A stretch of DNA of 32,007 bases from Candidatus Kerfeldbacteria bacterium (GTDB lineage: Bacteria; Patescibacteriota; Patescibacteriia; SBBC01): NCBI GenBank assembly GCA_016204645.1, contig JACQKI010000015.1, positions 1-32,007 of the forward strand, in the 5' to 3' direction. A program made the translations under genes and the position numbers. The notes beneath the pieces were generated by a model, which ran no database searches, was not told the origin of the DNA, and worked only from the letters and a program-made list of their open reading frames with translations. Below are positions 3,239 to 28,061 of the stretch, piece by piece (position 1 is the stretch's first letter; every line of letters starts with the position of its first letter).

Positions 3239-3241
3239 ACC

Positions 3242-4030
3242 ATGCGCCGCTACCTAAAACTTTTCAGACGATTCGTGAGCACCAGCTTGATCCGTGAAAT
3301 CGAATTCCGCTCGGGTTTCATCGTCCTGCTGTTGAGCGAGTTACTGCAAGATGCGATCACGATAGTCTTTTTCTCGGCCCTGTACGGCTCGGTCGCCACG
3401 GTTCGCGGCTGGTCGTACGCCGAAGCCTTGCTCCTGCTCGGCACGTTCATGCTCATCACCTACCTGACGCATGCCTTATTCTACCGAAACTTTGCCCGGG
3501 TTTCAGAGTACGTCAACCAAGGTCGTCTCGACGTGCTGCTGACCAAACCGGTTGACACGCAATTCATCATGACGCTGCGATACACCGCGGTGGCTGACCT
3601 GTTTAACATCGCGGCCGCCCTAATCGTGGTCGCGTTTGCAGTTAGCCGGCTTGACGTCCCGATCACGTTCGGAGCCGGGCTGGGTTATACCACGCTGGTT
3701 TTACTAGGGGCGGTCATCGTCTACGGAATCTGGTTCGCTATCTCGTTGCTGGCCTTCTGGTTGACCCAGATCGAAGAGATTCAAGAGTTGTGGAACAGCC
3801 TGTTCGACTTTACCCGTTACCCACGGCAAATCTACGAGGGCGGCGTACGGATACTATTCACAGTGGTCGTGCCGATCCTGACCATTGTCGCTTTTCCGGC
3901 TGAATTTTTTCTCGGTCGAATCGGCCCGGCTGCAATCCTCTATAACCTCGGGTTAGCAGTTATGCTCCTCGTTTTGACGCGCTGGCTCTGGAACGTCGGC
4001 CTTCGCCGGTACTCGTCAGCGTCGTCTTGA
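3242..4030 (+). CDS. ABC-2 family transporter permease (second of the pair)
   Basis: 262 aa, multi-TM, starting 3 nt after the preceding stop. It ends LWNVGLRRYSSASS like the partial gene at 1..782. Confidence 0.8.
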   Translation: MRRYLKLFRRFVSTSLIREIEFRSGFIVLLLSELLQDAITIVFFSALYGSVATVRGWSYAEALLLLGTFMLITYLTHALFYRNFARVSEYVNQGRLDVLLTKPVDTQFIMTLRYTAVADLFNIAAALIVVAFAVSRLDVPITFGAGLGYTTLVLLGAVIVYGIWFAISLLAFWLTQIEEIQELWNSLFDFTRYPRQIYEGGVRILFTVVVPILTIVAFPAEFFLGRIGPAAILYNLGLAVMLLVLTRWLWNVGLRRYSSASS

Positions 4031-4062
4031 ACCGTTAAGTACGCTATACTACAGTCTCGCGT

Positions 4063-5049: not shown

Positions 5050-5907
5050 CATCACCGCCATCGTGGTCAGCTTCAACACGCCGGACGAGCTCCAGCGGTG
5101 CCTCGCCAGCCTGCGGGCCTCGACCGGGGTTGGACTGAAGACAATCGTGGTCGACAACGATTCAGCCTTCGACGTCGCGGCTGTGGTCCAGCGTGCATAC
5201 CCCGACGCCGAGCTGATTCGGAACTCGAGCAACCGCGGATTTGCAGCGGCCGTCAACCAGGGCCTGGCCCGAGCCAGCGAAACAGTCGTGCTCATCAACC
5301 CGGATCTGACCGTTCAACCGGACACCTTAGCCATCTTGTACGACCGCCTGATCGCTCACCCGAACGCCGGCATCGTCGGACCGAAGCTCCGCTACCCTGA
5401 CGGGACGCACCAGCCTTCAGTAAAACGCTTCCCCCGTTGGATCGACTTAGCGTTGACTCTGGCTAAGCTCCCAAACTTTGTTCCCGGACTGAGTCGTCGC
5501 TACCACGCCACAGATACAGACTATGACCGGGAGCAGATGGTCGATCAAGTGATGGGCTCGTGCTTCATGATCCGTCCCCAGACGCTGTACGCAGTCGGAA
5601 GCTTCGACGAAGGTTTTTTTATTTGGTTTGAGGGGTCGATTTTTGCCGGCGAGCCAGGCAGCGCGGCTGGCTGACGCTGTACACGCCGGCTGCAACGGCC
5701 ATACACGTCCGAGGAGCGAGCTTCCGGCCGCAGCCGAGCCGATTCAAGCAGCGTCTGCTACGTCAGAGCATCCGCCACTACTGCCGGAAACATTTTGGCC
5801 TGCTGGCCGAGCTCGGCTTACTCCCGGCCTTGGCCGTCAGCGCCGGCAGCGGACTGCTGATAGACGTGTTCCGGCTCCGGAAACCCCAAGCCGTACGGGA
5901 CTACTAA
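5039..5907 (+). pseudogene. Family 2 glycosyltransferase (COG1216/WbbL-like) interrupted by a 1-nt frameshift in the G4 run at 5632-5635
   Basis: From GTG 5039 the first frame gives ITAIVVSFNTPDEL...VVDNDS...NRGFAAAVN...FDEGFFIWFEG and terminates at 5674. From 5635 the frame one nucleotide back reads VDFCRRARQRGWLTLYTPAATAIHVRGAS... and is open to TAA 5905-5907. The joined product of about 289 aa aligns end to end with the GT2 at 9330..10145 (FFMYFEDVDWCRRFW vs FFIWFEGVDFCRRAR). An assembly or sequencing error cannot be excluded. Confidence 0.7.
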
Positions 5908-6854
5908 TGCCGCATCCGCCGTTCCACTGCCCGAACTGCCACCAGCCACTCTCAACGCACCAGCTCGCCATGACCTGCCGGTCGTGTCGTGCCACGTACC
6001 CTGTCCGTCACGGGATTCCGCAGCTCCTCCACCCGCGGTTCATGGACAGCTTTAAAGAATCCGAGCAGCACTTCCACGACGAGCTGTCGGCTTCGGCCAC
6101 CAACCGATCGATCGCCAGCCGGTCATCGCGTTTCCACAACCGTTTCAAACAGCCGATGATGGAGCTGCCGCTCGGCTCGGCAGTCCTCGAAGTTGCCTGC
6201 GGTACGCGGGTCGACGGCGTGGAAATTGCCGCGGCCGGGCAATCGGCCACCGCGCTCGATATTTCGCCGGACGCGGTCGTCCAGGCCCAGTCGTTGGTCA
6301 GGCAGGTCGGCCTTGAAGGCCGTCTGCGCTTAGCCGTGTCGGACGCCGAGCACCTGCCGTTTTCCGACCGGGTGTTCGACGCGACCTTCGTCGCCGCTTC
6401 CTTCCACCACTTTCCCAACCAACTGTCCGCGCTCTTAGAGATGCGGCGCGTCACCAAGCCGGGCGGCCTCGTCATCTTCGGGGTCGAGCCGCAGGCCTGG
6501 CCGTACCGAACGCTCTACCGCTGGCTAGGGCCGCTCAAGCGGTACATCCGACGCCGCCAGTACCGGATGTACAACTCCGTCGCCGACGATTCGACCGAAG
6601 GGTACACTGAACCGCAACTCCGGGAGCTATTTCGGCGAGCCGATCTTGAAATCCAGGAGGTCTCGCCTGCCAAGCTGCTGAGCGAATGCTACGATTCGAG
6701 CGTCCGGCTACTCCAGCGGCTGCTGCGTCGGCAGCTGCATCCCTGGGCCTGGCTCGACCATCGGTTGGCGGACGTCGACGCTGGCTTGGAGCGCCTGCCC
6801 GGCATCAGCAAACTATTTTGGCACTGGAACGTCATCAGTCGAGTGCCGGTATGA
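5907..6854 (+). CDS. Class I SAM-dependent methyltransferase with N-terminal Trm112-like zinc ribbon
   Basis: ATG 5907 overlaps the TAA of the upstream gene (TAATG). The N-terminus has CPNC-x15-CRSC...YPVRHGIPQLL. Motif I is VLEVACGTRVDG, followed by LDISPD, LPFSDRVFDATFV and PGGLVIFG. The track ORF 5628..6854 has a spurious 5-prime extension. Confidence 0.85.
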   Translation: MPHPPFHCPNCHQPLSTHQLAMTCRSCRATYPVRHGIPQLLHPRFMDSFKESEQHFHDELSASATNRSIASRSSRFHNRFKQPMMELPLGSAVLEVACGTRVDGVEIAAAGQSATALDISPDAVVQAQSLVRQVGLEGRLRLAVSDAEHLPFSDRVFDATFVAASFHHFPNQLSALLEMRRVTKPGGLVIFGVEPQAWPYRTLYRWLGPLKRYIRRRQYRMYNSVADDSTEGYTEPQLRELFRRADLEIQEVSPAKLLSECYDSSVRLLQRLLRRQLHPWAWLDHRLADVDAGLERLPGISKLFWHWNVISRVPV

Positions 6855-8332
6855 ATTTCCAGCTGCCGAAACCGCGGTTGGTCTGGAGCATCGCCGGAGT
6901 CTACTGCCTGAGCGAAGTCCTGTCGTTCACGGGCTTCCTGCAACCAACCGTGGGGCTAGTCGCGTTTTGCCTGATCGCGTTCGGCGCGGCCGTGATTACC
7001 TGGCGCTCACTGGACAACGGCTTACTCGTGCTGCTGGCTGAGCTGTTCGTGGGCGGTAAAGGGTACTTGTACAGTCTCGAGGTCGGCCAGGTGACGGTTT
7101 CGATTCGGCACGCCCTGTTTGTCATCGTCGGATTGATCTGGCTGGTGAAGTCCGCAGCTGGCCGCGTACGGCCGCTGCTGCCGGCTGTGCTCAGCCGCTG
7201 GCTGGTAGCACTGGCAGCGGTGGTAGCGCTCGGGGTGGTGATCGGATTGATTCGCGGTAACCACCCACGCGACATCTTCTTCGACGCCAACGCCTTCCTG
7301 TTTTACCTGCTGGTACTCGTCTTGGCCTGGCCGAAGCTCGACTGGCCGCGATTCGTGACTAAGCTGCTGGCCGTAGTGGCGGCAGCTGCGGTCGTGCTGG
7401 GATTGAAGAGCTTGGTAGTCCTGGGCATCTTTGTACACTGGCGGATCGACGGACTGGTCGCAGTCTACCGGTGGATCCGCAATACCGGCGTCGGCGAAAT
7501 CGCGCCGATTTTCGGAGGAACCTACCGGGTCTTCTTCCAGAGCCAGGTGTACGGTTTGCTGGCCGTGGCGCTGCTAACGCCGTGGCTGCTGCCGCGCATC
7601 CGGCCGAGCGACCGGTGGCCGCGGTGGCTGCTGGTTCCAGTTACCCTGGCTTTGGCATCGGTCATGGTCTCACTCTCGCGCAGCTTCTGGCTCGGCGGTT
7701 CGCTGGCGGTCGTGGGAGCGGGGGTTGTTGTCTGGCGTCGCTACCATTGGGCGACTCGAGAGTGGGTTTCGGTAGGCGTAGCCAGCGCGTTGGTTCTGTT
7801 CGCAGCCTACACGCTCAACTCCTGGGCGCTCAACTTTCCGTACCCGTACCCGTTGCCCGGCGCACCCGGCCGCGGCGATGCGATCCGCGAACGGCTCACC
7901 ACCATCAGCGGGGAAGCCGCGGTCTCCAGCCGGCAGCAGCAGTTCAGGGCATTACTGCCGGCTATCGAGCAGCACCCGCTGTTCGGATCGGGTTTTGGGA
8001 CGGCCGTCACCTACCGGAGCCAAGACCCGCGCCAAACGCAGTTGCCTTCCCAGGGAATCTACACCACCTACGCTTTTGAATTGGCGTACCTCGACCTGGC
8101 GCTAAAGGTCGGCCTGGTCGGATTGCTGGTCTACCTCGGCTTGCTGGCCACTACCCTTAGGCAGCTAGTCCGCTCGATCAATCCGTTGACGTTCGGACTG
8201 GCTGTGGGCTTGGTTGCGCTGCTGGGCGTTCACCTGACAACCCCGTACCTCAATCATCCGCTCGGCATCGGCTTCGTGCTGCTCGCATTCGCCGCGATCG
8301 CCCGACTGCCGGCGGTCGGCCACCGCCCATGA
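6851..8332 (+). CDS. O-antigen ligase / Wzy_C-like polytopic membrane protein
   Basis: ATG 6851 forms an ATGA overlap with the upstream stop. The 493-aa protein has about 11-12 TM segments. It shows SLSRSFWLGG, a large extracytoplasmic loop, and HPLFGSGFGT followed by LALKVGLVGLL, as in the Wzy_C family. Confidence 0.7.
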   Translation: MNFQLPKPRLVWSIAGVYCLSEVLSFTGFLQPTVGLVAFCLIAFGAAVITWRSLDNGLLVLLAELFVGGKGYLYSLEVGQVTVSIRHALFVIVGLIWLVKSAAGRVRPLLPAVLSRWLVALAAVVALGVVIGLIRGNHPRDIFFDANAFLFYLLVLVLAWPKLDWPRFVTKLLAVVAAAAVVLGLKSLVVLGIFVHWRIDGLVAVYRWIRNTGVGEIAPIFGGTYRVFFQSQVYGLLAVALLTPWLLPRIRPSDRWPRWLLVPVTLALASVMVSLSRSFWLGGSLAVVGAGVVVWRRYHWATREWVSVGVASALVLFAAYTLNSWALNFPYPYPLPGAPGRGDAIRERLTTISGEAAVSSRQQQFRALLPAIEQHPLFGSGFGTAVTYRSQDPRQTQLPSQGIYTTYAFELAYLDLALKVGLVGLLVYLGLLATTLRQLVRSINPLTFGLAVGLVALLGVHLTTPYLNHPLGIGFVLLAFAAIARLPAVGHRP

Positions 8333-9333
8333 CCGTTTCCGTCCACATCGTTACCTGGAACAGCCAGTCCTTTCTTCCGGCTCTCCGGCGGAGCCTCGAA
8401 TCGCAAACGCACCAGCCCGAGCGGATTATCGTGATTGATAATAACTCGACTGACGGCACCCTCGACGGCTTAGCGGACTGGCCAGGTATCCACGTCCTGC
8501 GGCAGACCCGCAACCTAGGGTTTGCCCGAGCCCACAACCAGGCGATCAACCTCAGCCGCAGCCAAGCGGTGCTGGTCACCAACCCTGACGTGATCCTGGA
8601 ACCAAGTTGCCTCGCAGCGTTGGTTGACGCGCTCGAGCGTGATCTCCGGCTCGGCAGCGTTACTCCAAAAATCCGACGCTTCTCGCACACCTCGGACGAC
8701 TTGAGAGAACCAGTTCGCTCTGCTACGATTGACGCTGCCGGCATGGTCGTACGTCGGTCACGGCAAGCCCTCAACCGAGCTGAAGGGTCCGATGACCGCG
8801 GTCAGGTTGACCAACCCATCGACGTCTTCGGAGCGCCCGGCGTATTAGCCCTGTACCGCCGACAGGCGCTGAACGACGTAGCCTTTGGGCGAGAGTACTT
8901 TGATGAAGATTTCTTCGCCTATAAAGAAGACGTCGACGTGGCCTGGCGGCTGCGCTGGGCAGGCTGGGGGAGTCGCTACGTTCCGGCTGCCCGAGCCTAC
9001 CACTACCGGACGTTGGATCACCACCAAGACCGCCTGACGAAGCTGGTAGCCACGCGCTCCCGTCGGTCGCCAACGCTCCGCTACCTTTCGTATCGAAACC
9101 ATCTGCTCATGCTCATCAAGAACGAAACCATCGGTACGCTGCTGCCGCACCTGCCCTTCATCGCCTGGTACGAGCTGCGAAAGTTCCTGTTCGCGGCGGT
9201 CCGCGAGTGGTCGACCCTACGCGGCTTGGTCGACGCGCTCCGGCTCGCTCCCCGCATGCTCCGCAAACGCCGGGTGGTTACCGAGCGCCGTCGCCTGAGC
9301 GCATCCAGCATGCGTCGCCTGATCAGCCCATGA
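8329..9333 (+). CDS. Family 2 glycosyltransferase
   Basis: ATGA overlap at 8329-8332. It shows VHIVTWNS, VIDNNSTDGT, NLGFARAHN and KEDVDVAWRLRWAGW. 334 aa. Confidence 0.88.
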   Translation: MTVSVHIVTWNSQSFLPALRRSLESQTHQPERIIVIDNNSTDGTLDGLADWPGIHVLRQTRNLGFARAHNQAINLSRSQAVLVTNPDVILEPSCLAALVDALERDLRLGSVTPKIRRFSHTSDDLREPVRSATIDAAGMVVRRSRQALNRAEGSDDRGQVDQPIDVFGAPGVLALYRRQALNDVAFGREYFDEDFFAYKEDVDVAWRLRWAGWGSRYVPAARAYHYRTLDHHQDRLTKLVATRSRRSPTLRYLSYRNHLLMLIKNETIGTLLPHLPFIAWYELRKFLFAAVREWSTLRGLVDALRLAPRMLRKRRVVTERRRLSASSMRRLISP

Positions 9334-10145
9334 ACCTTGACCTGTCGGTCATCATCGTTAACTACAAAGAACCCGGTTTCTTGCGGCAGTGCCTAAAAGG
9401 CATCCGTTCGGCTAACCCGAGACTGACTTACGAAATCATCGTGATTGACAATGCCTCAAACGACGGGAGCGTCGACATGGTGCGAGAACACTTTCCGGAT
9501 GTTCAGCTCTTGGCCCAAACCGTCAACCGCGGCTTTGCGGTCGGTGTCAACCTCGGACTGCGAGCCTCGTCTGGCCGGTACGTGCTGATCCTCAATCCGG
9601 ATATGGCAATCTTCGCCGGCAGCCTCGAGTCATTAGTCGCCTACCTCGATGCCCATTCACAAGTCGGGATGGTAGCCCCCAAGCTGCTCAACCCGGACGG
9701 CTCGGTTCAGATGTCGTGTCTTCTATTTCCCAAGTTGACCACTCCGATTTTGCGCCGGACGCCGATCGGCCAGCTGCCGTTTGCCCGCCGGCAGCTCCGC
9801 GCGTACCTGATGGTGGATTGGGACCACCGCGCCGAACGACCAGTCGAATGGGTCCTGGGCTCGTGTATGCTAGTTCGACGATCGGCGGTCGACCACGTCG
9901 GGCCAATGGACGAACGATTCTTCATGTACTTCGAGGATGTTGACTGGTGCCGGAGATTCTGGGAAAAACATTGGCGCGTCGTCTACCTCCCGTCGGTCCA
10001 GCTGGTTCACTACCACCAGCGGATGTCGGCTGAAAATCCCGGGTTGAAAGGCGTGTTCCAGAAGCTAACCCGTATTCACATTCAGAGCGGCTTCAAGTAC
10101 TTCCAAAAGTACTGGAGAATCCCGAATCCGCAGTTGGTAGCCTGA
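9330..10145 (+). CDS. Family 2 glycosyltransferase
   Basis: ATGA overlap at 9330-9333. It shows LSVIIVNYKE, VIDNASNDGS, NRGFAVGVN and FEDVDWCRRFW. 271 aa. The track ORF 9207.. is a 5-prime over-extension. Confidence 0.88.
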   Translation: MNLDLSVIIVNYKEPGFLRQCLKGIRSANPRLTYEIIVIDNASNDGSVDMVREHFPDVQLLAQTVNRGFAVGVNLGLRASSGRYVLILNPDMAIFAGSLESLVAYLDAHSQVGMVAPKLLNPDGSVQMSCLLFPKLTTPILRRTPIGQLPFARRQLRAYLMVDWDHRAERPVEWVLGSCMLVRRSAVDHVGPMDERFFMYFEDVDWCRRFWEKHWRVVYLPSVQLVHYHQRMSAENPGLKGVFQKLTRIHIQSGFKYFQKYWRIPNPQLVA

Positions 10146-10147
10146 CC

Positions 10148-12064
10148 ATGAAACTCATCCCAAAGCTCAAGCGTCGGTCGGGCTGGCGCGGTCGACTGAT
10201 CGCCTGGGCGGCCTGCCATCCGGTAGCCGCCCGGGTCATCGGATTAGTTCTGGCGCTGTCGGTTTTTACTGCGGCCATTCTAGCGCCGGTGCAAGCCGCG
10301 ATCGAGCACGGCCGATCTGCCCGCGAGTTCCTGACCACAGCTCAGCAGGCGCTCTCCAAGCAGGACTTTTCCGCCGCCTTGGACGCCACCGAGCAAGCAG
10401 CGCGCGAGCTGGCCGCGACTGACCGCGCTGTCGACAAGCTCGCCGCGCTGCGCCCGCTCCCCATCATCGGCACCCAGGTTACCGCGGTCGAGGTGCTGAC
10501 CGACGTAGCTCGACTGCTGGTCGGGGCCATGCAGGATGGCACCGCTGCCGGCGACTCAATTTTTGGACCACTGAAAGCCGGGCGCGGCAGCGTCAGCTTG
10601 GCCCAGCTGACCCCGGCGGACAAGCGAGCGATCCTGGAGCGGATTGCGACCTCGGGGCCGCAGCTGGAGCGGGTCAGGCAGCACGTCCAACGAGCAGCCG
10701 AGCGGTTCCACGACATGCCGCGAAACGGGCTGTTCCCCCCGCTGCGGTCCGCGATTGCTCCGCTCGAAGAGCAGGTGCCGTTCTTGGAACAGGTCGCCGA
10801 GCAGCTCATTCCAGCCACCCGAATCATCCCGGCCGTGGCCGGATTCCCTGACCCGAAGACGTACCTGCTCCTGCTCCAAAACAACTCAGAACTCCGGCCA
10901 ACCGGCGGCTTCATCGGTACGTACGGCATCCTGAAGGTCTCGTCCGGAGAGATTACGTCGTTTACCACCAACGATGTTTACACCCTCGACAAGCCGGTCG
11001 CCGACAGCCTGTTCATCGAGCCGCCGGCTCCGCTCCGACGGTACAACAATGCTACGCAGTGGTTTTTTCGCGACGCCAACTGGTCGCCCGACTTTCCAAC
11101 CTCCGCCCAAAAGGCCCTCGAGTTTTATCGCCTCGAAAACGGCCCACAGCGCAGCTTCGACGGCGTGATAGCGGTCACGCCGACCTTTGTCAGCTCGCTG
11201 CTGACAATCAGCGGTGACATCACGGTCGACGGCATCACCTTTACGCCGGACAACCTGGTCGACCGGCTGCAGCCGCTGGCCGAGCGTAAGGAACTGATCG
11301 GGGAAATGTCAAAAACCTTGCTCAACCGTCTGCTGGCCCTGCCGCAGCGCCGCTGGCAAGAAATGATCGTAGCATTGACGACCGCCCTGGAAGAAAAGCA
11401 CATGCTGCTGTACGCTGGCGACGCATCGCTGCAGGAACAGATCCTCGGACAGAACTGGGGCGGGGAAGTGCGCCCGGCGTCGATCGACGGGTTCTACGTG
11501 GTCGATGCAAACCTAGCCAGTCTCAAAACCGACCAGGTGGTCGACCGCTCGATCAACTACGAACTTACGGTTGAACGCGACCAGGCGACCGCCACGGTAA
11601 CTATCAGCTACACCAACCGCGGCGCCTTTACTCGGACCACGACGCGGTACCGTACCTACGCGCGGCTGTACGTCCCGAACGGCAGCACCCTGATCAGCGC
11701 TGACGGCGCCATGCGCAACGACAAAATTCGAGGCGGCGGGGTCGGCACCGTCGACGTCGGGCAGGACCTCAACCGGACCGTATTCGGTGCATTCATCTCA
11801 ATCGAGCCCGGAGAAACCAAATCGCTTTCGTTCAGTTACCGGCTGCCGGCGGCGGTCGTTGAGTCCCTCAACCGGGGACAGTACCAGCTGTACGTCCAGA
11901 AGCAACCGGGCACGATTGCCCACCGGCTTTCCGCCAGTCTAGAATTTTCAAGGAACGTCGAGCTGGTCAGTGGAGTTGACAGCGCGGAACAATCCGGTCA
12001 TAGTCGAGTGTCGGTTGCATCCGATCTCCGAACCGACCGACAGCTGACCGTAACCTTTAAGTAA
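10148..12064 (+). CDS. DUF4012-like membrane-anchored extracytoplasmic protein
   Basis: 638 aa with a single N-terminal TM ([19 protein letters not shown]). [22 protein letters not shown] (nt 10862-10921) matches my recollection of the QNNxExRxxGG core of DUF4012. The context is a glycosyltransferase operon. Confidence 0.6.
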
Positions 12065-12066
12065 CC

Positions 12067-13074
12067 GTGTTCATCAAGCGCATCGGCATCGACCTCGGTA
12101 CCACCTACACGCTCGTCCACCTCCCCGGACGAGGCATTGTGCTGAACGAACCGTCGGTGGTGGCTCTATCGGTTGCCGATCGGAAGATCTTAGCCGTCGG
12201 CAACGAAGCGAAAGAAATGCTCGGCCGGACACCTGACTCAATCGTCGCCACTCGGCCGCTCAAAGACGGCGTGATCGCCGACTACCGGACTACCGAAGCG
12301 ATGCTCCGTTACTTCATCAACAAGGCCACCGGCGGAATTCGACTGTTCCGGCCGGAGGTCATGATCGCTGTGCCGGCCGGCATCACCTCAACCGAACGAC
12401 GGGCCGTAATCGATGCAACCATCGCCGCCGGCGCGAAAGCCGCCTACATCATCAAGGAACCAATCGCCGCCGCCATCGGCGCGAACATCCCCATCGGTTC
12501 GGCATCCGGCCACATGATCATCGACATCGGCGGCGGCACCAGCGAAATCGCGGTCATCAGCCTCGGCGGCATCGTCGCCAACACCAGCGTGCGGATCGGC
12601 GGCAACAAGCTGGATGCCGCCATCCAAGAGTACATCCGCAAGAAGTACGGCTTGGCCATCGGTGAGCGAACTGCCGAGGAACTGAAGATTAACATTGGCT
12701 CGGCCGTGCCATTGGATAAGAAACTGACCGTGGAAATCCGCGGCCGCGACGTGGTCAGCGGCTTGCCGAAAACCATTAGCGTCGTGTCGGACGACGTTAC
12801 CGAGGCCATCCAAGACGAGCTGGGCGGCATCATCCAGGCCGTCAAGCTCGTGCTCCAGGAAACGCCGCCCGAGCTGTCGGCCGACGTCATCGACAAAGGT
12901 ATGGTTTTGTCCGGAGGATCGGCTCAGCTCAGGCACATCGATCAACTGCTGACGCAAGCCACCGGAGTGCCGGCCTACGTGGCTGATGATCCGCTGCTGT
13001 GCGTCGCCCGTGGCACCGGCATCGCCCTCGACAACCTCGAGTCGTACAAGCGCAGCATCCTGTCGGCAAAGTAA
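12067..13074 (+). CDS. MreB/Mbl-family actin homologue, paralogue 1 (inside the glycan operon)
   Basis: 335 aa, GTG start 2 nt after the DUF4012 stop. Phosphate-1 is GIDLGTTYT, phosphate-2 is [13 protein letters not shown], and the adenosine motif is VLSGGSAQL. It is roughly 50-55% identical by eye to the mreB at 18128. Confidence 0.9.
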
Positions 13075-13076
13075 GT

Positions 13077-14276
13077 ATGGTCATCGGGATCGATGCATCA
13101 CGCGCCAACGTTCGGGAACGAACCGGAACTGAGTGGTACGCCTTCCACCTGATACGCGCCCTGACGGCTATCGACCGATCCAATCGGTACGTTTTGTACC
13201 TAACGGAACAGCCGATCGACGACCTCCGGCAGCTCGGGCCGAACGTCACCTACCGGATTTTGGGCTGGCCATTTCGGTTGCTGTGGAGCCAGCTTCGCTT
13301 ATCCTTGGAGATGCTGCGGCGTCCGCCCGACCTACTGTTCGTGCCGGCTCACACCATTCCGATCATCCACCCGCGCAGCACGGTCACTACCCTCCACGAC
13401 GTCGGCTTCGAGCGGTTCCCCGAACTGTACGGTCGCCGGCCGATCGGACGTCCAGGCCTGACGGGACGACTGCTCGGGTTAGTCATTCGGCTGCTGACGC
13501 TCGGTCGGTACGGCAACAGCGAGCTCGACTACCACCGATGGTCTGCCCGCCTGGCAGCCTCGAAAGCGGCCCACGTGATCACAGTTTCACAGTTTACTAA
13601 GTCTGAAATCATCAGCTGCTACGGAACTGATGCTGCGCGAATCAGCGTCGTCCACCTCGGTTTTGACCGGACGGAGTTCCAGCGCCCGCCGCCTCCGGCC
13701 ATAGACAGCGCCGTCGCTCGTTTTCGGATTGCCAGGCCATACGCCATCTTCGTCGGCCGACTGGAAAGAAAAAAGAACATTACCGGCGTTATCAACGCCT
13801 TGGCGCGTGCGCGGCGAACGCTACCGACGCTCCAGCTGGTATTGATCGGAAACCCGGGGTTAGGCTGGGGTGAAGCCGAGCGCCTGATTCGGATGCACCG
13901 ACTGGACGCAGCGGTTTACCGGCTTGGCTGGCAGCCCCGCCACGTGTACGTTCCGCTGCTAGCTGGCGCAACCGCTCTGGTATTCATCTCTCGCTACGAA
14001 GGTTTTGGCCTACCGGTACTCGAAGCCTTCGCGGTCGATACGCCGGTGATAGTCGCTTCGGGTTCGGCCTTACCCGAAGTTGCAGGCAGCGCCGCAATCG
14101 CGGTCGCTCCCGATGACACTGACGGAGCTGCCCGCGCGCTGATCGACCTAGCCAGCGACAACCAACTTCGTCGAGCGCTGCTGACGCGGGCCCGGCAACG
14201 CCTCGCCCTGTTCAGCTGGTCCCGCGTCGCTCAAGCGACACTGGCTATACTCGAACGGGTCGGCCAGCGCCGGTGA
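13077..14276 (+). CDS. GT4 (group 1) glycosyltransferase
   Basis: ATG 13077 lies 2 nt after the MreB-paralogue stop. It has the YEGFGLPVLEAFA signature of the GT-B/GT4 E-x7-E region. 399 aa. The track ORF 12999.. is over-extended. Confidence 0.88.
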   Translation: MVIGIDASRANVRERTGTEWYAFHLIRALTAIDRSNRYVLYLTEQPIDDLRQLGPNVTYRILGWPFRLLWSQLRLSLEMLRRPPDLLFVPAHTIPIIHPRSTVTTLHDVGFERFPELYGRRPIGRPGLTGRLLGLVIRLLTLGRYGNSELDYHRWSARLAASKAAHVITVSQFTKSEIISCYGTDAARISVVHLGFDRTEFQRPPPPAIDSAVARFRIARPYAIFVGRLERKKNITGVINALARARRTLPTLQLVLIGNPGLGWGEAERLIRMHRLDAAVYRLGWQPRHVYVPLLAGATALVFISRYEGFGLPVLEAFAVDTPVIVASGSALPEVAGSAAIAVAPDDTDGAARALIDLASDNQLRRALLTRARQRLALFSWSRVAQATLAILERVGQRR

Positions 14277-14317: not shown

Positions 14318-15400
14318 ATGCGACGCTGTACCGTGACTAACATGCGCGCAAAATCCAGCCGGCCGAAGGCGGCCGCCGCCCGGTCACGAGCCGTGGCCGC
14401 TTCGGCGCATCCGACGACTGACCACCAGTCGGGCATACCCGTCAACCCTCGATCGGCCGAGTACCTACGCCAGTTGCTCAACGGCCGGCGCCGCTCCCAC
14501 GCCTACCTGATTGTCGGCCCGCGTGGGGTCGGTAAGACGTGGCTGGCTCGGGTCATGGCCAACGCCGCGGTCTGTCATCGTCCGAGCAACGGTCAGGCCT
14601 GCGGCGATTGCGAATCATGCGCAATGTTCGCCCTTAACCGGCATCCGGACGTGACCGTGGTCGGCGAACGCGAACAGCCGACTACAGTCGAGCACATCCG
14701 AGCGCTGCTCTCGACGCTCGACCGACGTCCAACCGTTTCCCAGCGACGAGTTACGGTGATTGACCAAGCCGAACAGCTAACCGAAGAAGCGGCCAACGCG
14801 CTGCTCAAGTCTCTCGAGGAACCGAGCGGCGCCGGCATGTTCATCCTGACCGCTTCGAGCCTACGAGCGCTGCCGCCGACCGTTGTTTCGCGCTGTGCCG
14901 TTGTCACGGTCGCGCCTGTCCCGGTTGAAACGCTCAAGGCGCAGCTGATCCGAGACGGACTCGACTCCACCCGAGCCGGGGCCATCGCCGTCCTGAGCGA
15001 CGGGCGGCCTGGAATTGCCCGCTACCTAGCAACCCTGCCAGCAGCCTACGAACAGTTTCTGGCCGATTCGGATGTGCTGATCTCCGTATGGCGAGCTCCG
15101 CTGCACGAACGGTTGACCATGGCGGCTGACGTCGTCGACGACTACCAAGAACCGAGCCGGCTGATCGGATTGCTCGAACGGTGGCAGTCGTTGATCGGAC
15201 GGCTACTCCGGATTTCGGCTGGACTGTCTGACCGCGGGCCGCGGCACGAACAGCTGCACGACATCGCCCGCCGCCTGACCCCCAGCTCCTTCGCCGAAAC
15301 CGCCGACCGCTTGCTGGCGGTTCGGCAACGACTCAACGGCACAGCTAATACTCGCCTGAATATCGAGTCACTCGTCTTGCACTTGCCACGACTGGTATGA
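14318..15400 (+). CDS. holB: DNA polymerase III subunit delta-prime (HolB)
   Basis: AAA+ P-loop HAYLIVGPRGVGKTWLA and a Cys cluster CHRPSNGQACGDCESCAMF. It also shows VTVIDQAEQLT (Walker B-like) and ANALLKSLEEP. The start is uncertain, with in-frame alternatives at 14333 and 14342. Confidence 0.85.
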   Translation: MRRCTVTNMRAKSSRPKAAAARSRAVAASAHPTTDHQSGIPVNPRSAEYLRQLLNGRRRSHAYLIVGPRGVGKTWLARVMANAAVCHRPSNGQACGDCESCAMFALNRHPDVTVVGEREQPTTVEHIRALLSTLDRRPTVSQRRVTVIDQAEQLTEEAANALLKSLEEPSGAGMFILTASSLRALPPTVVSRCAVVTVAPVPVETLKAQLIRDGLDSTRAGAIAVLSDGRPGIARYLATLPAAYEQFLADSDVLISVWRAPLHERLTMAADVVDDYQEPSRLIGLLERWQSLIGRLLRISAGLSDRGPRHEQLHDIARRLTPSSFAETADRLLAVRQRLNGTANTRLNIESLVLHLPRLV

Positions 15401-16464
15401 GAGTACCGCAGGCACTACTGGCGTTGGTTGCCGGTCTGGTCATGACTGCCCAAGGGTGTTCCATCAGCTTTCGAACCGGCGGCCCGTTGGACGGCGGCGT
15501 GTTCCGGTCTGATGACGGCGGGACCACCTGGAATGCCGTCGCCAACGCTGGCACCACCGCCAAGGGAAAGCCAATTCGAATTGACCACCTTGACATCGAG
15601 TTCATTCGGATCGACCCGGTGACCAGCGCTACGGTCTACCTCGGAACCCGCGGGGCCGGACTGTACCGTTCTGACGACAGCGGTGACCGGTGGGTTACAA
15701 CGGGCTTGGGCGCTGGAACCTACGTGGCCCTGGCAATCGACCCATCCGCCCCGTCTATTCTGTACGCGGCCAGCGGCGGAGTGATAACCAAGAGCGGCGA
15801 CGGCGGCGCCACCTGGAAACCGATCTACGTTGAGTCGAAGCCGGATCGCACCATCACCGACTTGGCCATCCAGCCGACCGACTCGAGCGTTCTGCTGGCG
15901 GCCACCAACCGCGGCGACGTGCTGCTCAGCCGCGATTACGGCAATACCTGGCAGCTGCTGTCGAGCCTGACGACGGTCGACCACATCAACCGGCTGCTCT
16001 TCCCCCCAGCCAACGGGACAACCGTCTACGCCCTGACTCGTGCCAGCGGCCTGTTCCGCTCGACTGACGGCGGCGCCAGCTGGCAGTCGATGAAACAGAG
16101 CCTGCAGCCGTTCCCGGGATCCACCAGCATCTCTTCGGTGGCCACCGTCACCGGCCGGTCAGATACGCTGTACCTGGCGTCGGGCTACGGCCTGCTGGTG
16201 ACGCGCGACGGCGGCGCTTCGTGGCAGCCGATCAACACCCTAGTACCATTCGGCAGTCAGCCGATCCAGGCCGTTGCCGTCAACCCTGCGAACGAAGCCA
16301 CCATGTACGTCCTAGTCGGCAACCGACTCCGTAAATCGATCGACGGCGGCGCCAGCTGGGACGCTAAAATCACCGTTTCGACCGGCCGGCTGCTAACCGC
16401 GCTGACCCTCAACCCCGATCGGCCTGACCAGCTCTTCGTCGGTACTATCAAGCCAAAAAAGTAG
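15397..16464 (+). CDS. Secreted Asp-box (BNR) repeat beta-propeller protein, possible lipoprotein
   Basis: ATGA overlap with holB. The signal peptide is MRVPQALLALVAGLVMTAQGCS. Seven SxDxGxTW-type boxes are present: SDDGGTTW, SDDSGDRW, SGDGGATW, SRDYGNTW, STDGGASW, TRDGGASW and SIDGGASW. Confidence 0.8.
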   Translation: MRVPQALLALVAGLVMTAQGCSISFRTGGPLDGGVFRSDDGGTTWNAVANAGTTAKGKPIRIDHLDIEFIRIDPVTSATVYLGTRGAGLYRSDDSGDRWVTTGLGAGTYVALAIDPSAPSILYAASGGVITKSGDGGATWKPIYVESKPDRTITDLAIQPTDSSVLLAATNRGDVLLSRDYGNTWQLLSSLTTVDHINRLLFPPANGTTVYALTRASGLFRSTDGGASWQSMKQSLQPFPGSTSISSVATVTGRSDTLYLASGYGLLVTRDGGASWQPINTLVPFGSQPIQAVAVNPANEATMYVLVGNRLRKSIDGGASWDAKITVSTGRLLTALTLNPDRPDQLFVGTIKPKK

Positions 16465-16468
16465 GCGT

Positions 16469-17005
16469 ATGACTGCTGCCCTCTTCGAAGCCGCGATTGA
16501 CCACCTCCGCCAGGAACTCGTCAGCGTCCGAACGGGCCGGGCCAATCCCAGCCTGGTCGAAAACGTTTCGGTCGAAGCCTACGGCGCCACCGTACCGCTG
16601 CCGCAACTGGCCAGCACCTCGTCTGCCGACGCTCGAACCATCGTCATCCAGCCGTGGGACAAAAACGTCCTAAAAGACATTGAACGGGCGCTCCAGCAGG
16701 CTGCCCTGGGTATGGCGCCGGTCAACGACGGTACCGTCATCCGGCTCAGCGTACCACCCTTGACGGAAGAGCGACGGAGAGAGTACCTCAAGATCCTAAA
16801 CTCCAAGCTCGAAGCCGCCCGAGTGGCCGTCCGCAAAATCAGAGAAGACCAGCAGCACGCGCTGCGCCAAGCCAAGCAGGCAGGGCAGCTCTCCGAAGAC
16901 CAGCTGTTCGCGCAGCAAAAAACCCTCCAGAAGCACGTCGACAGCTACATGCAGCAGATCCAAGCCTTAGGCCAGCAGAAAGAGCAAGAACTGCTGACAG
17001 TCTAA
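16469..17005 (+). CDS. frr: Ribosome recycling factor
   Basis: 178 aa. VEAYGATVPLPQLA, IQPWDK, PVNDGTVIRLSVPPLTEERRREYLK and a C-terminal helical region fit RRF. Confidence 0.92.
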   Translation: MTAALFEAAIDHLRQELVSVRTGRANPSLVENVSVEAYGATVPLPQLASTSSADARTIVIQPWDKNVLKDIERALQQAALGMAPVNDGTVIRLSVPPLTEERRREYLKILNSKLEAARVAVRKIREDQQHALRQAKQAGQLSEDQLFAQQKTLQKHVDSYMQQIQALGQQKEQELLTV

Positions 17006-17011: not shown

Positions 17012-18127
17012 ATGCTGCTCACCTTTATCATTTTCATCGTCGTTGTCTCGCTGCTGGTGTTCGTCCACGAGCTCGGGCACTTCATGACCGCCCGGCGATT
17101 AGGGGTAACCGTGGAAGAATTCGGTTTTGGCTTTCCGCCGCGGATATTCGGCCTTCGACGCAGGGGAACCGTCTACTCCCTGAACTGGATACCATTCGGC
17201 GGCTTCGTGCGACTGAAGGGCGAAACGCCGGGAACCAGTCTGGATCCAGACAGTTTCGCGGCTCAGTCGCGGCCACGTCGGTTCGGCATTTTAGCCGCCG
17301 GCGTCCTGATGAACTACCTGCTCAGCGCCGTGCTCTTCACCGCCGGTTTTACGGTAGGTTTACCCTCGGTCAGCGATACCGCTCCAGGCAGCGCACCCCT
17401 GAAAGATGTCCGACCGCAAATCGTCAGCCTGGAAGACGGCGGGCCAGCCGCCCACGGCGGCTTGCGCGTCGGCGACTCGATCGTCGCCTTCAACGACCGA
17501 CCGCTGACTAGCTCACGCGAACTGAAAGAGCTTCAGCGCGAAAACGCCGGTTCGCCGATTACCCTGTCGGTTCAGCGCGGTCAACGTCAACGGACGCTCA
17601 CGCTCAGTCCGGCTCAAAGCCCGAACGGCGATTACCGAATCGGAGTGGGCATCCTCGACGTCGGAACCCTGACCTACCCGTTTCCGCAATCTATCTGGTA
17701 CGGCTTGACTACAACGGTCCGCATAACCGGCGACATCTTCGTTTCGTTCGGCCACCTGCTGCGCGACTTAGTTGTCGAACGGACTGTCAGTCCAGATCTG
17801 TCCGGTCCGGTCGGGGTGGTGGTCTTGACCGGTCAAGCCCTCGAGCTGGGGTGGCCGTACCTCATCCAGTTTACCGCCTTGCTGTCGGTCACCTTGGCGG
17901 TCATCAATTTTTTCCCGTTGCCTGCCCTGGACGGCGGGCGGGCACTGTTCGTCATCATCGAATCGGTCCGCCGGAAGGCCATCGACTACCGAGTTGAGTC
18001 GCTGATTCACGCCATCGGATTCTACGTCTTGATCGCCTTAGTACTGTTGGTCAGCTTACGAGACGTACAGCGACTGGGCTTAGGGGATAAGCTGGTCGAA
18101 AACGTCCGGCAGATTTTCGGAGGCTAA
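17012..18127 (+). CDS. rseP: RIP metalloprotease RseP (site-2 protease, M50 family) with PDZ domain
   Basis: HELGHF zinc motif at the N-terminus, a central PDZ-like segment (GGLRVGDSIVAFNDRPL), and a C-terminal NFFPLPALDGGR motif. Confidence 0.9.
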   Translation: MLLTFIIFIVVVSLLVFVHELGHFMTARRLGVTVEEFGFGFPPRIFGLRRRGTVYSLNWIPFGGFVRLKGETPGTSLDPDSFAAQSRPRRFGILAAGVLMNYLLSAVLFTAGFTVGLPSVSDTAPGSAPLKDVRPQIVSLEDGGPAAHGGLRVGDSIVAFNDRPLTSSRELKELQRENAGSPITLSVQRGQRQRTLTLSPAQSPNGDYRIGVGILDVGTLTYPFPQSIWYGLTTTVRITGDIFVSFGHLLRDLVVERTVSPDLSGPVGVVVLTGQALELGWPYLIQFTALLSVTLAVINFFPLPALDGGRALFVIIESVRRKAIDYRVESLIHAIGFYVLIALVLLVSLRDVQRLGLGDKLVENVRQIFGG

Positions 18128-19183
18128 GTGTTCGGAAAACTGCTCGGACGTTTCTCGCGCGACATGGGCATCGACCTCGGTACTAAAAACACCTTGGTCT
18201 ACATTAAAGACAAAGGAATCGTCATCAACGAGCCCTCGGTCGTGGCGGTTAATACGCGGACCGATCAAATCTTAGCGGTCGGCGAAGAAGCGCGGCTGAT
18301 GGTTGGGAAGACACCCAGCCACATCGTCGCCATCCGGCCGCTGATGAGCGGCGTGATTTCCGACTTCGAGGTGACTGAACGAATGCTCCGGCACTTCATC
18401 GACCGGGTCCACCGCGAAGTGCTCTCGTTCCTCAGCCGGCCGCGGGTAGTCATCGGCATTCCGCTCGGCGTAACCGAAGTCGAACGCAAAGCAGTCGAAG
18501 ACGCGACCCTCCACGCCGGCGCCCGCGAAGTTTTTTTAATCGAAGAGCCGATGGCCGCTGCTATCGGAGCCCGGCTGCCGATTCAGGACGCCTCCGGTAA
18601 CATGGTGGTGGACATGGGCGGCGGAACGACCGAGATTGCAGTCATCAGCTTGGGTGGCATCGTCAGCTGGCGGTCGCTGCGCGTTGCCGGAAACGAGCTC
18701 GATCAAAACATCATCCAGTATGCGCGTGAGCACTTCAACGTCTTGCTCGGAGAGCGAACCGCCGAGGAGCTCAAAATAAAAATCGGCGGGGTGACGGACC
18801 AGGTCGAGCAGCTCGAGGCGCCGATGCGTGGCCGCGACCTGCTGACCGGACTTCCCAAGGAAGTGACCATCGCCACCGGCCACCTGCGCGAAGCCATGCA
18901 GCGCTCGATAAACCTGATCATCGACAACATCAAGTCGACAATCGAGGCGACACCGCCAGAGCTGGTGGCTGATATCTACTCCCGCGGCATCGTACTCAGC
19001 GGCGGCGGTGGGCTGCTGCGGGGCTTTGCGCAGGCCATTCAGAGCGAAACCCACATCCCGGTCCACGTCGTCGATGATCCGCTGACCGCAGTCGTCCGCG
19101 GAACCGGAATTGTCCTCGACGACCTCGACAACTTGCGCAGCGTACTGCTGCTGTCAGCCAACGAAGTTTCCGCGCCGAGGTGA
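18128..19183 (+). CDS. mreB: Rod shape-determining protein MreB (paralogue 2, canonical locus)
   Basis: 351 aa with GIDLGTKNT, DMGGGTTEIAVIS and VLSGGGGLL, followed by mreC/mreD/mrdA. GGAGG at 18119-18123 is the only clear Shine-Dalgarno sequence seen in the window. Confidence 0.93.
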   Translation: MFGKLLGRFSRDMGIDLGTKNTLVYIKDKGIVINEPSVVAVNTRTDQILAVGEEARLMVGKTPSHIVAIRPLMSGVISDFEVTERMLRHFIDRVHREVLSFLSRPRVVIGIPLGVTEVERKAVEDATLHAGAREVFLIEEPMAAAIGARLPIQDASGNMVVDMGGGTTEIAVISLGGIVSWRSLRVAGNELDQNIIQYAREHFNVLLGERTAEELKIKIGGVTDQVEQLEAPMRGRDLLTGLPKEVTIATGHLREAMQRSINLIIDNIKSTIEATPPELVADIYSRGIVLSGGGGLLRGFAQAIQSETHIPVHVVDDPLTAVVRGTGIVLDDLDNLRSVLLLSANEVSAPR

Positions 19184-19980
19184 CGTTGGCAGCCGGTCCT
19201 CCACAACGCCGGACAATCTTGACGATTGGCAGTACGCTCGTCGCAATCGTACTGCTGCACTACCTGGGCGTCCTTCGGCCCCTCGAACGCTTGGCAGTGC
19301 AAACGTTACTGCCGATCGGCCGTTGGACGACAGGATGGTTGAGCCCCGTAGCCGAAACCCGGTCCAGTGAAACGTCCGCCCGGATGGCCATCCTGGAACA
19401 GCGGATCGCCGAACTGAACGTAGAGAATGCCCAGCTGCAATCCGCGCTCGAGGCAGCTGTCGAAGCGGATGAACAAGAGCGATTTCTAAAAACGCGTCAG
19501 TTCGAAGGAGTCGCAGCTCGGCTGGTTGCCCGGAGCGGCGATCCGACCTCCGAGTTTGTGACGGTCGACCGCGGTACCCGAGCCGGTATCCAAATCGATG
19601 CCCCTGCGATCGTAGCCGGCGGCGTTATCATCGGACGAGTTATCGCGGTCACCGACGACATCTCACGGATCCTGCTGAGTACCGACAACCGTAGCAGCTT
19701 CGCCGGTGTCAGCCTGCAGTCTACCACCACGCAGGGGTTAGTCTCCGGCGCGCGTGGTCTGTCGCTGAGCATGGGGCTGATTTCCCAGTCAGAACACATT
19801 GAAGCTGGAGATATCATCGTGACCTCCGGGGTGGACAGCGGAGTCCCGCGCGGGTTGGTGCTGGGCGAAGTCGAGCGAGTCGATCGGCAAACCGGTGCGC
19901 TGTTCCAGTCGGCCTCCCTGCGTCCGCTCTTCCAATCTAACCGTCTCGACGTGATTACCATCCTGACCACCAATCAGTAG
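19180..19980 (+). CDS. mreC: Rod shape-determining protein MreC
   Basis: GTGA overlap with mreB. It has an N-terminal TM and a coiled coil (LEQRIAELNVENAQLQSALE). GDIIVTSGVDSGVPRGLVLGEV is typical of MreC. Confidence 0.85.
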   Translation: MTLAAGPPQRRTILTIGSTLVAIVLLHYLGVLRPLERLAVQTLLPIGRWTTGWLSPVAETRSSETSARMAILEQRIAELNVENAQLQSALEAAVEADEQERFLKTRQFEGVAARLVARSGDPTSEFVTVDRGTRAGIQIDAPAIVAGGVIIGRVIAVTDDISRILLSTDNRSSFAGVSLQSTTTQGLVSGARGLSLSMGLISQSEHIEAGDIIVTSGVDSGVPRGLVLGEVERVDRQTGALFQSASLRPLFQSNRLDVITILTTNQ

Positions 19981-19981: not shown

Positions 19982-20506
19982 ATGCCCCGATTCATCCTGA
20001 TCGGAATCTTAGTCGTGGCCCTGCTGGCCAGCCTGTTCGTCACCCCGCACCTGCAACCGCTGCTCCTGAAACCCAGCCTGTTCCTGCCTGCTCTCTTGCT
20101 AATCCTACTGCTGGGCGACACCTGGCTGGCGCTCCGGAGCGCGGCAGTCGGGGGAGTAGTGATGGACCTGTTCTCGGCCGGACCGTTCGGCGCGTACGTG
20201 TTTGCCTACGTTACAACCGTGGTGGTTACCCGCTGGGTATTCCGAACCAAAATTACCAACCGCTCGTTGCTGGCGCTGCTATCGCTGACCGGCATCGGGA
20301 GCATCCTGGCATCACTGCTGGTCATGGTCAACAGCCACCTCGGTCGCCTGATCGATCCTCGCGCACTCAGCGTCTCGCCGACGAGCAGCTGGGTGGCCGT
20401 GACGGTTACCGATGCCTTTCGAACGATGGCTCTGGCTGTGCTCGTCTACTGGATGATCCGCCTGTTCGGCCGTCGTTACTCCAGCTTGACCGCTCATGAA
20501 TTTTAG
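19982..20506 (+). CDS. mreD: Rod shape-determining protein MreD
   Basis: 174-aa polytopic membrane protein lying between mreC and the PBP2 gene. The call rests mainly on position and hydrophobicity. Confidence 0.65.
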   Translation: MPRFILIGILVVALLASLFVTPHLQPLLLKPSLFLPALLLILLLGDTWLALRSAAVGGVVMDLFSAGPFGAYVFAYVTTVVVTRWVFRTKITNRSLLALLSLTGIGSILASLLVMVNSHLGRLIDPRALSVSPTSSWVAVTVTDAFRTMALAVLVYWMIRLFGRRYSSLTAHEF

Positions 20507-28059: not shown

Positions 28060-28061
28060 GT

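Follow-up and report, generated by a model that had tools for sequence, protein, structure and literature searches.

Two MreB paralogues in Candidatus Kerfeldbacteria: an ancient, slowly evolving copy with Thermotoga-type anchor features, encoded preferentially beside cytoplasmic-face glycan enzymes

Introduction

MreB stands at the centre of bacterial wall growth as its organiser, and how a single filament coordinates cytoplasmic precursor enzymes, secondary polymers and synthases outside the cell is a matter of debate. This work deals with a stretch of 32,007 nucleotides from a Candidatus Kerfeldbacteria bacterium (contig JACQKI010000015.1; the whole stretch, positions 1-32007, is called the window below), which holds two MreB genes, MreB-1 (12067-13074, +) and MreB-2 (18128-19183, +). 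Candidatus Kerfeldbacteria is placed by NCBI in the Parcubacteria group of the Patescibacteria, i.e., the candidate phyla radiation (CPR). A preliminary description of the window had seen in MreB-1, whose gene is wedged between those of a DUF4012 protein and a family 4 glycosyltransferase (GT4), a filament with a membrane anchor of its own kind, dedicated to glycopolymer synthesis or export and separate from the elongasome. Comparison of its sequence with those of its orthologues shows MreB-1 to represent an ancient and strongly constrained Patescibacteria subfamily with anchor features of the Thermotoga maritima type, whose gene lies preferentially beside those of cytoplasmic-face glycan enzymes.

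In T. maritima MreB, residues L93/F94 mediate membrane binding, and Salje et al. (2011) sorted MreBs into a short class and one that bears an additional amphipathic helix, about 7-9 residues long, at the N-terminus and that was confined, in their sample, to Gram-negative bacteria (PMC3163269). CPR bacteria are reported without a Gram-negative envelope (PMC6744442). Bacillus subtilis has partly redundant MreB isoforms (PMC6126333), its MreB is tied to the synthesis of secondary wall polymer as well as peptidoglycan, and its listed associates include TagA/B/F/G/H/O together with the LCP ligases TagT/U (PMC6126333, PMC7831098). In Escherichia coli, MurG complexes with MreB (PMC2170320). The MreBs of the CPR split into two clades, some genomes having both, according to a preprint on Spiroplasma MreB phylogeny (bioRxiv 10.1101/2020.05.13.095042) that does not go into the anchors, rates of evolution or gene neighbourhoods of the CPR proteins. 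As to DUF4012, it appears in the literature searched only as a family enriched in CPR and Gram-positive bacteria (PMC6744442) and in the exopolysaccharide/capsular polysaccharide (EPS/CPS) cluster of Bifidobacterium longum 105-A, where its gene is tabulated between a priming glycosyltransferase and wzz (PMC5412050). Two CPR MreB clades and associations of MreB with glycan enzymes are, then, already known; as far as we have searched, there is no earlier description of the two kinds of anchor side by side in one genome, of a non-canonical copy that evolves the more slowly, of the gene backbone joining both copies or of the lineage-specific linkages to GT4/DUF4012, murA and WecG.

Compared with these systems, MreB-1 is like T. 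maritima MreB (PDB 1JCE/1JCF) in having six residues before GIDLGT, a hydrophobic residue 2 and a loop GG-x-x-L93-F94 followed by K/R-P, at about 50% identity and a template-modelling (TM) score of 0.92-0.94. It is unlike it in E97 (R in T. maritima), T109 and K130, in the presence of a helix-bearing paralogue and in the conserved GT4/DUF4012 neighbourhood, and loop-dependent membrane binding, which an L93A/F94A mutant loses, has been shown only for the T. maritima protein. With B. subtilis and its MreB, Mbl and MreBH the genome shares several MreB paralogues in a (presumed) monoderm, as well as a setting of secondary wall polymer and peptidoglycan synthesis, and Geobacillus MreB is the best PDB sequence match of MreB-1. 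The Bacillus paralogues, however, are scattered and lie outside glycan clusters, whereas here the linkage is one of gene order across many species, and there are no Tag or LCP genes among the window matches. To the MreB-MurG pairs of E. coli, Caulobacter and Chlamydia, the likeness lies in an MreB-associated GT-B transferase that is cytoplasmic, peripheral to the membrane and active on a lipid-linked precursor (PMC2170320), but the neighbour here is a GT4 and not a GT28/MurG, and its putative association with MreB-1 comes from synteny alone. DUF4012 is encoded near glycan genes both here and in Bifidobacterium, where the setting is a surface-polysaccharide cluster with no MreB among its tabulated open reading frames (ORFs; PMC5412050).

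Results and Discussion

By its sequence and its predicted structure, MreB-1 (335 amino acids, GTG start) is a complete MreB-fold ATPase. It reaches 445.6 bits with Pfam MreB_Mbl (PF06723, cut-off 27), 446.6 with TIGR00904 (365.75) and 460.3 with NF010539 (293), and the corresponding scores of MreB-2 are 459.1, 449.4 and 478.9. The nucleotide-binding motifs GIDLGT (phosphate 1), EPxAAAIG, DxGGGTxE (phosphate 2) and LSGGxx (adenosine) are whole in both paralogues, as the preliminary description had it, and all four line up with those of the T. maritima, Geobacillus, Caulobacter crescentus and E. coli MreBs. The AlphaFold2 (AF2) model of MreB-1 (predicted local distance difference test, pLDDT, 90.1) has a TM score of 0.94 to T. 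maritima MreB and of 0.87-0.94 across the T. maritima, Geobacillus, C. crescentus and B. subtilis MreBs, against at most 0.79 for MamK and BeeR and at most 0.81 for Hsp70 and Arp/actin chains. The fold is nearer to that of MreB than to those of MamK, ParM, FtsA or Hsp70. MreB-1 was also rejected as an orthologue of MreBH or Mbl, given its 376.8 bits with the NCBIfam MreBH model (NF010540, cut-off 515) and its separate clade; MreB-2, at 404.9, is likewise under that cut-off.

The anchor features of MreB-1 are those of the short class. Its N-terminus (12067..12084, +) has six residues, MFIKRI, before GIDLGT and is devoid of the amphipathic-helix extension, and it cannot be longer because an in-frame TAA stands at 12058-12060. 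Nucleotides 12331-12348 (+), GGC GGA ATT CGA CTG TTC, encode the loop GGIRLF (residues 89-94), in which L93/F94 align to the T. maritima membrane-insertion pair at identical residue numbers (1JCE alignment), bearing out the near identity of the two loops that the preliminary description had claimed. MreB-1 thus combines both sequence features of a loop-anchored (T. maritima-type) MreB, i.e., the lack of an N-terminal extension and a pair of adjoining hydrophobic residues in the loop of domain IA. Both features are conserved: all 79 orthologue loci with a 5′ end start eight residues before DLGT, as MF[IV]K[KR]IGIDLGT, with upstream stops usually barring extension, and the loop reads GG-[IVFM]-[RKH]-[LFI]-[FLI]-RPEV in 81/81 sequences, positions 93/94 being always L, F or I. 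Three residues, E97, T109 and K130, are specific to MreB-1 and unlike all four references. E97 immediately follows the loop (R, Y, K and R in the references) and K130 immediately precedes the catalytic E131 (E, E, D and E). The signature of the Patescibacteria MreB-1 subfamily includes the MF start, the loop -x-x-[LFI][FLI]-x-PE, ITSTE and K130.

MreB-2 (351 amino acids), which heads mreC, mreD and PBP2 in the classical cluster, as described before, begins with MFGKLLGRFSRDMGIDLGT, to be compared with MLKKFRGMFSNDLSIDLGT of E. coli K-12 MreB (NC_000913), and the resemblance previously claimed for the two starts holds in this comparison. Its N-terminal extension (18128..18166, +), MFGKLLGRFSRDM, is a predicted amphipathic helix, with a hydrophobic moment of 0.61 (0.54 in E. 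coli) that is only weakly above shuffled sequences, 6.4% of which reach it. All 22 MreB-2 orthologues with a readable N-terminus start 15 residues before DLGT, as MFNKLLGKFSxD, with a 7-residue extension. MreB-2 thus bears an E. coli-like extension in 22/22 orthologues, in spite of coming from a CPR organism. Its loop (REVLSFLSRPRV; E-x-F-[ST]-[LIV]-[LIV]-PRPRV in the orthologues) is two residues longer than that of MreB-1 and hydrophobic too. With hydrophobic residues retained in the loop of MreB-2 as well, the anchors of the two paralogues are set apart by the predicted helix alone, and MreB-2 may, by analogy, use both anchoring devices, as Salje et al. suggested for F103/M104 of E. coli. 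Of the difference in anchoring proposed earlier, the split between short and extended N-termini therefore stands, being conserved in all the orthologues examined, whilst the hydrophobic loop is not exclusive to MreB-1.

The two intact paralogues are deeply diverged, with 50% identity in the window and 46.6% on average across species. MreB-1 is 55% identical to the MreB of Geobacillus, 49% to those of T. maritima and E. coli and 48% to that of C. crescentus, the values for MreB-2 being 52%, 51%, 51% and 50%, so that the paralogues are, by that average, less alike each other than either is to any of these four. In neighbour-joining trees, which carry no bootstrap support, MreB-1 and MreB-2 form reciprocally monophyletic clades. 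Since its mean identity to MreB-2 is below that to the reference MreBs and the clades are separate, MreB-1 is not a recent duplicate, and the idea that it arose by recent lineage-specific duplication was rejected. In a library of 1.8 billion proteins, the representatives nearest to MreB-1 are mostly short-N-terminus MreBs with 51-58% identity; for the nearest non-orthologous ones, a cluster look-up yielded little beyond Chloroflexota and Hydrogenedentota names (53-57%). The locus of one of the nearest representatives (P0246, locus L084) holds a second, longer MreB, and reciprocal best scores match the two to MreB-1 and MreB-2 (377 vs 287 bits and 385 vs 301 bits). Relatives of P0246 are named Nealsonbacteria and Minisyncoccales and are of the Paceibacteria type, and their MreB-1-like proteins show the subfamily signature, with a short N-terminus, G-x-F-x-F-[FL]-KPE and ITSTE.

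The two copies also differ in their rates. Among the 24 genomes with both, MreB-1 is more conserved than MreB-2 in 276/276 genome pairs (77.5% vs 64.1% identity), MreB-2 diverging about 1.7 times faster. Orthologues of DUF4012 and GT4 share only about 27-46% identity with their counterparts in the window. Between the MreB clades, 21 positions show fixed differences, and 14 of these fall within the membrane-facing subdomain IA (Fisher p = 0.01).

The gene order around both copies, as called from Pfam and NCBIfam profile matches to mechanically called ORFs, is the following (matching source in brackets):

48-782, +, ABC-2 permease (Pfam)
843-1385, -, msrA (Pfam/NCBIfam)
1437-2390, +, gpsA (Pfam/NCBIfam)
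2444-5049, +, two ABC-2 permeases and an ATPase (Pfam ABC2_membrane_6, ABC_tran)
4970-5674, +, family 2 glycosyltransferase GT2a (Pfam)
5628-6854, +, methyltransferase (Pfam)
6686-8332, +, Wzy_C/O-antigen-ligase-like membrane protein (Pfam)
8329-9333, +, GT2b (Pfam)
9207-10145, +, GT2c (Pfam)
10148-12064, +, DUF4012 protein, 638 amino acids (Pfam PF13196)
12067-13074, +, MreB-1 (Pfam, NCBIfam, AF2 model)
13077-14276, +, GT4-family glycosyltransferase, 399 amino acids (Pfam Glycos_transf_1, Glyco_transf_4)
14318-15400, +, holB (Pfam)
15397-16464, +, BNR/Sortilin/Ycf48-like beta-propeller (Pfam)
16469-17005, +, frr (Pfam)
17012-18127, +, rseP (Pfam)
18128-19183, +, MreB-2 (Pfam)
19180-19980, +, mreC (Pfam MreC)
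19982-20506, +, mreD (Pfam MreD, weak)
20496-22418, +, PBP2/mrdA (Pfam PBP_dimer, Transpeptidase)
22503 onward, +, greA, lysS, HD, Ham1, serS, alr, FtsQ-like ORF, P-type ATPase (Pfam/NCBIfam)

Two nucleotides separate the DUF4012 stop (12062-12064) from the MreB-1 start (12067), and two again the MreB-1 stop (13072-13074) from the GT4 ATG (13077), in agreement with the gaps given by the preliminary description.

The triplet recurs in other genomes. A scan for MreB-1 in one genome per GTDB species gave 585 matches, the best 80 of which (73-83% identity) were taken; their taxon names include Falkow-, Magasanik-, Uhr-, Kerfeld-, Komeili- and Buchananbacteria, which we take to be of GTDB class ABY1. 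By tblastn, 36 of the 67 well-flanked loci have DUF4012 directly upstream and GT4 directly downstream, a further 17 have the GT4 neighbour alone, 12 have DUF4012 alone (several with GT4 one gene beyond) and two have neither, so that at least one of the two adjoins MreB-1 in 65/67. Gene order in 77 loci places DUF4012 at position -1 in 52, and GT4 (family F2) at +1 in 52 and at +2 in 12 more. Retention near MreB-1, computed over the 42 loci flanked by 8 kb or more on both sides, is 88% for GT4 and 71% for DUF4012, with no other gene above 52% (GT2b/GT2c 52%, frr 50%, BNR 50%, MreB-2 45%, holB 40%, rseP 36%, Wzy_C 24%, ABC transporter 2%). The pair MreB1-GT4 is the most persistent element and is present across four types of context:

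Context A, window-like
Context B, only the triplet recognisable, no other window gene being detectable nearby (12 loci)
Context C, mreB2-mreC-mreD-pfkB-RmlC-like-HIT-dehydratase-response regulator-MreB1-GT4-subtilase-epimerase
Context D, mreB2-mreC-mreD-PBP2-greA-MreB1-GT4

Contexts C and D have MreB-1 a short way downstream of the mreBCD string. In ABY1-type loci, the BNR/Sortilin/Ycf48-like gene belongs to the conserved string holB-BNR-frr-rseP between the two MreBs. In eight loci (L031, 5954-14349, and L036, L037, L039, L043, L046, L053 and L056) a receiver-only response regulator is directly upstream of MreB-1; in loci of this kind it is preceded by a PfkB kinase, an RmlC-like isomerase, a HIT protein and an RmlB-like dehydratase, and a subtilase with FG-GAP repeats lies 3′ of GT4.

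Outside the ABY1 group, the neighbours of MreB-1 differ but stay one functional class, that of cytoplasmic-face glycan enzymes. Besides L084, three loci show the Paceibacteria-type layout murA, MreB1-like, holB, (x), frr, rseP, proS, MreB2-like, gatC, gatA. The paralogue pair and the backbone MreB1...holB-frr-rseP...MreB2, being common to ABY1-type and Paceibacteria-type loci, predate the split of the groups. The murA gene (EPSP_synthase family) precedes the MreB1-like one with a gap of 2-6 nucleotides (L088, 5730-8008; L089, 5725-8008; L084, 6565-8862), and the MreB2-like gene is followed by gatC-gatA, not by mreC-mreD. No BNR family is annotated in the holB-frr-rseP string of the Paceibacteria-type loci. 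In a third lineage (L082, L086), a transferase of the WecG/TagA family (GT26) follows the MreB1-like gene, with murB nearby and a divergent PEGA protein. In the non-ABY1 lineages, a PEGA-domain protein of about 400-470 amino acids is encoded on the opposite strand, shortly upstream of the MreB1-like gene (L082, 512-4107; L086, 6673-10602; L088, 2699-4111).

The GT4 next to MreB-1 is a two-domain GT-B enzyme of the retaining type, with Glyco_transf_4 (PF13439) at residues 17-198, Glycos_transf_1 (PF00534) at 220-375 and no transmembrane helix. Its EX7E motif reads E308-GFGLPVL-E316, and at least 90% of the 68 family members compared have E308. The closest solved relatives in a PDB search are GlgM, MshA and PimA; no NCBIfam equivalog was reached for its specificity, and the relatives seen in the NCBIfam and PDB searches (GlgM, MshA, PimA, BshA, EpsE) are generic and all well short of the equivalog cut-offs. 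MurG (GT28) was rejected as its identity, only GT4-type Pfam and NCBIfam families being matched, and because no MurG family is among them the MreB-MurG precedent is an analogy and not a matter of membership. A modest match of the GT4 to Pfam GT4-conflict (PF20706, E 1e-10), far weaker than those to the general GT4 families, is probably family cross-talk and not a link to a defence system.

The DUF4012 protein matches PF13196 with 121.8 bits (cut-off 28) at residues 236-374. Its predicted layout is that of a basic cytoplasmic tail, one transmembrane helix and a large extracytoplasmic part, modelled by AF2 (pLDDT 92) as a helical bundle (25-230), an alpha/beta domain (237-440) and a beta-sandwich (447-637). 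The tail has a median of 23 amino acids and a net charge of +6, and is unconserved in sequence. A sequence search of the PDB found nothing for this protein, and a fold search (Foldseek) of the same database found only weak beta-sandwich matches with TM scores below 0.2 (M1 aminopeptidase N-domains, ITIH1, Ost1/ribophorin).

The conserved neighbours across loci and lineages support a linkage of MreB-1 to envelope-glycan enzymes. The interpretation we favour, with slightly better than even confidence, is that MreB-1 represents an old and very slowly evolving paralogue, widespread among the Parcubacteria-group Patescibacteria, that could act as a membrane platform for glycan-precursor enzymes, alongside the MreB-2 machinery. 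It would polymerise on the inner face of the membrane via M1/F2/I3 and L93/F94, and there, at the cytoplasmic face, it would hold enzymes making lipid-linked envelope-glycan precursors. In Kerfeld-, Falkow-, Uhr- and Magasanikbacteria the client would be the adjacent soluble GT4, whose product the single-pass DUF4012 protein might handle outside the membrane, a parallel being the Bifidobacterium EPS cluster gene beside wzz and the priming transferase; in Paceibacteria-type genomes the linked enzyme would be MurA, and in the third lineage the WecG/TagA-type transferase. MreB-1 would most likely work alongside MreB-2/MreCD/PBP2 and not apart from them, in likeness to the B. subtilis isoforms and their peptidoglycan and teichoic-acid enzymes.

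Several observations weigh against this platform interpretation. At their MreB-1 loci, Paceibacteria-type genomes lack DUF4012 and GT4, which are missing at some ABY1-type loci too, and because of this their coupling to MreB-1 is not obligatory: the coupling claimed in the preliminary description is recurrent in the Kerfeld-type group and group-specific, murA or a WecG/TagA-type transferase with murB standing there elsewhere. The backbone MreB1-(GT4)-holB-(BNR)-frr-rseP-MreB2 is itself co-directional and conserved, and in genomes this compact and co-directional adjacency is weaker evidence than in larger ones. The locus sample over-represents close relatives, being the best 80 of 585 matches, and the MreB trees are neighbour-joining ones without bootstrap. 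The lack of sequence conservation in the DUF4012 tail disfavours a specific MreB-binding motif in it, and no fusion of MreB to DUF4012 or GT4 was found by Pfam among ten long MreB-containing representatives, which are kinase-MreB, zinc-ribbon-MreB and tandem-MreB proteins.

Some of these observations fit another interpretation, possible but clearly less probable, in which MreB-1 is a second elongasome isoform, like Mbl or MreBH, that would co-polymerise with MreB-2 and guide RodA/PBP2, its neighbours merely reflecting tight gene packing. The conservation of the backbone MreB1-holB-frr-rseP-MreB2 in two Patescibacteria classes, with or without GT4/DUF4012, speaks for such an isoform, as do the position of MreB-1 downstream of mreBCD in contexts C and D, the partial redundancy of the B. 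subtilis isoforms (PMC6126333), the lack of a fusion among the ten long representatives and the DUF4012 tail without a conserved motif. Gene packing, however, would not easily account for an MreB1-GT4 adjacency that has outlived at least four independent rearrangements, nor for GT4 and DUF4012 being kept in 88% and 71% of the loci, compared to 36-50% for the backbone genes and 45% for MreB-2, nor for the neighbours in other lineages being, again, cytoplasmic-face glycan enzymes (MurA, WecG-type, MurB). In addition, the concentration of fixed differences in subdomain IA (14/21, p = 0.01) and the different anchors suggest non-identical roles for the two paralogues.

An independent role is what the preliminary description had proposed, namely a dedicated filament for glycopolymer synthesis or export (GT2s, Wzy_C, DUF4012, GT4, ABC) separate from the MreB-2 elongasome. 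The conserved triplet, with its overlapping or near-abutting genes, the place of MreB-1 amid glycan genes in all ABY1-type contexts, the differing membrane anchors and an identity of about 47%, which could block co-polymerisation, would all suit such a filament. We consider it unlikely, nonetheless, and its separation from the elongasome is not supported: the link to the mreBCD backbone is itself conserved, MreB-1 stands downstream of mreBCD in two contexts, the family is older than its association with DUF4012/GT4, and the Paceibacteria-type linkage is to murA, the gene of a peptidoglycan enzyme. The upstream Wzy_C and ABC genes are kept in just 24% and 2% of the loci, and independence from the elongasome is not a property that can be inferred from sequence. 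A role unrelated to the wall (polarity or host attachment, pilus positioning, DNA segregation), with incidental neighbours, is very improbable, since all the recurrent neighbours are envelope-glycan genes and MreB-1 keeps the canonical MreB motifs and fold and 55% identity to Geobacillus MreB, and, in spite of the co-option of MreB paralogues elsewhere, as in the swimming MreBs of Spiroplasma (bioRxiv 10.1101/2020.05.13.095042), nothing in the window points that way.

It is tempting to take the platform interpretation one step further, although we would give this version a low probability, and to speculate that MreB-1 filaments directly recruit cytoplasmic-face glycan enzymes (GT4 in Kerfeld-, Falkow- and Uhrbacteria, MurA in Paceibacteria, TagA-like transferases elsewhere), forming a loop-anchored ‘precursor factory’ apart from a helix-anchored MreB-2 that guides the extracellular synthases. 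If true, cells that are among the smallest known would assign each of the two known jobs of MreB to a polymer of its own. Independently of this, both known anchor types are kept side by side, on two MreBs, in a large lineage of uncultured, ultra-small cells, which bears on whether MreB functions can be partitioned between paralogues, and the linkage is the first to the cytoskeleton for the widespread DUF4012 family. Should the adjacency reflect operon packing only, a conserved Patescibacteria MreB subfamily would still have been defined.

Other features of the window

The window is tightly packed, with negative GC skew throughout and every gene but msrA on the + strand. Its GC content of 0.54-0.63 is high for a Patescibacteria genome. 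Profile search of the 32 kb gave none of the families of a wall-teichoic-acid-type pathway (priming transferase, TagA/GT26, TagGH-type exporter, LCP ligase); what it gave instead were GT2, GT4, Wzy_C, a methyltransferase and an ABC2_membrane_6-type transporter. The ABC-2 transporter at 2444-5049 is, by its families, a possible exporter, and it is uncertain whether it belongs to the glycan module.

As to operon signals, the numbers of promoter-like and terminator-like sites are those expected by chance (3 vs 3.4 expected and 18 vs 15, respectively). A sigma-70-like match (10/12, TTGACA-17-CATAGT, not significant) lies at 11976-12004, inside the 3′ end of DUF4012 and about 63 nucleotides upstream of the MreB-1 start. 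Since such sites are present in the region in chance number, it gives no more than a hint of an internal promoter.

The ORF at 27990-29066 (358 amino acids) has no Pfam match and a weak NCBIfam match to FtsQ, far under the cut-off (E 2.3e-7). Its real start is probably further downstream, since the called one overlaps the 3′ end of alr by about 70 nucleotides. Overlaps of 47-169 nucleotides with the preceding ORF are also seen for GT2a (4970-5049), the methyltransferase (5628-5674), Wzy_C (6686-6854) and GT2c (9207-9333), whose true starts are probably internal, which leaves the finding unaffected.

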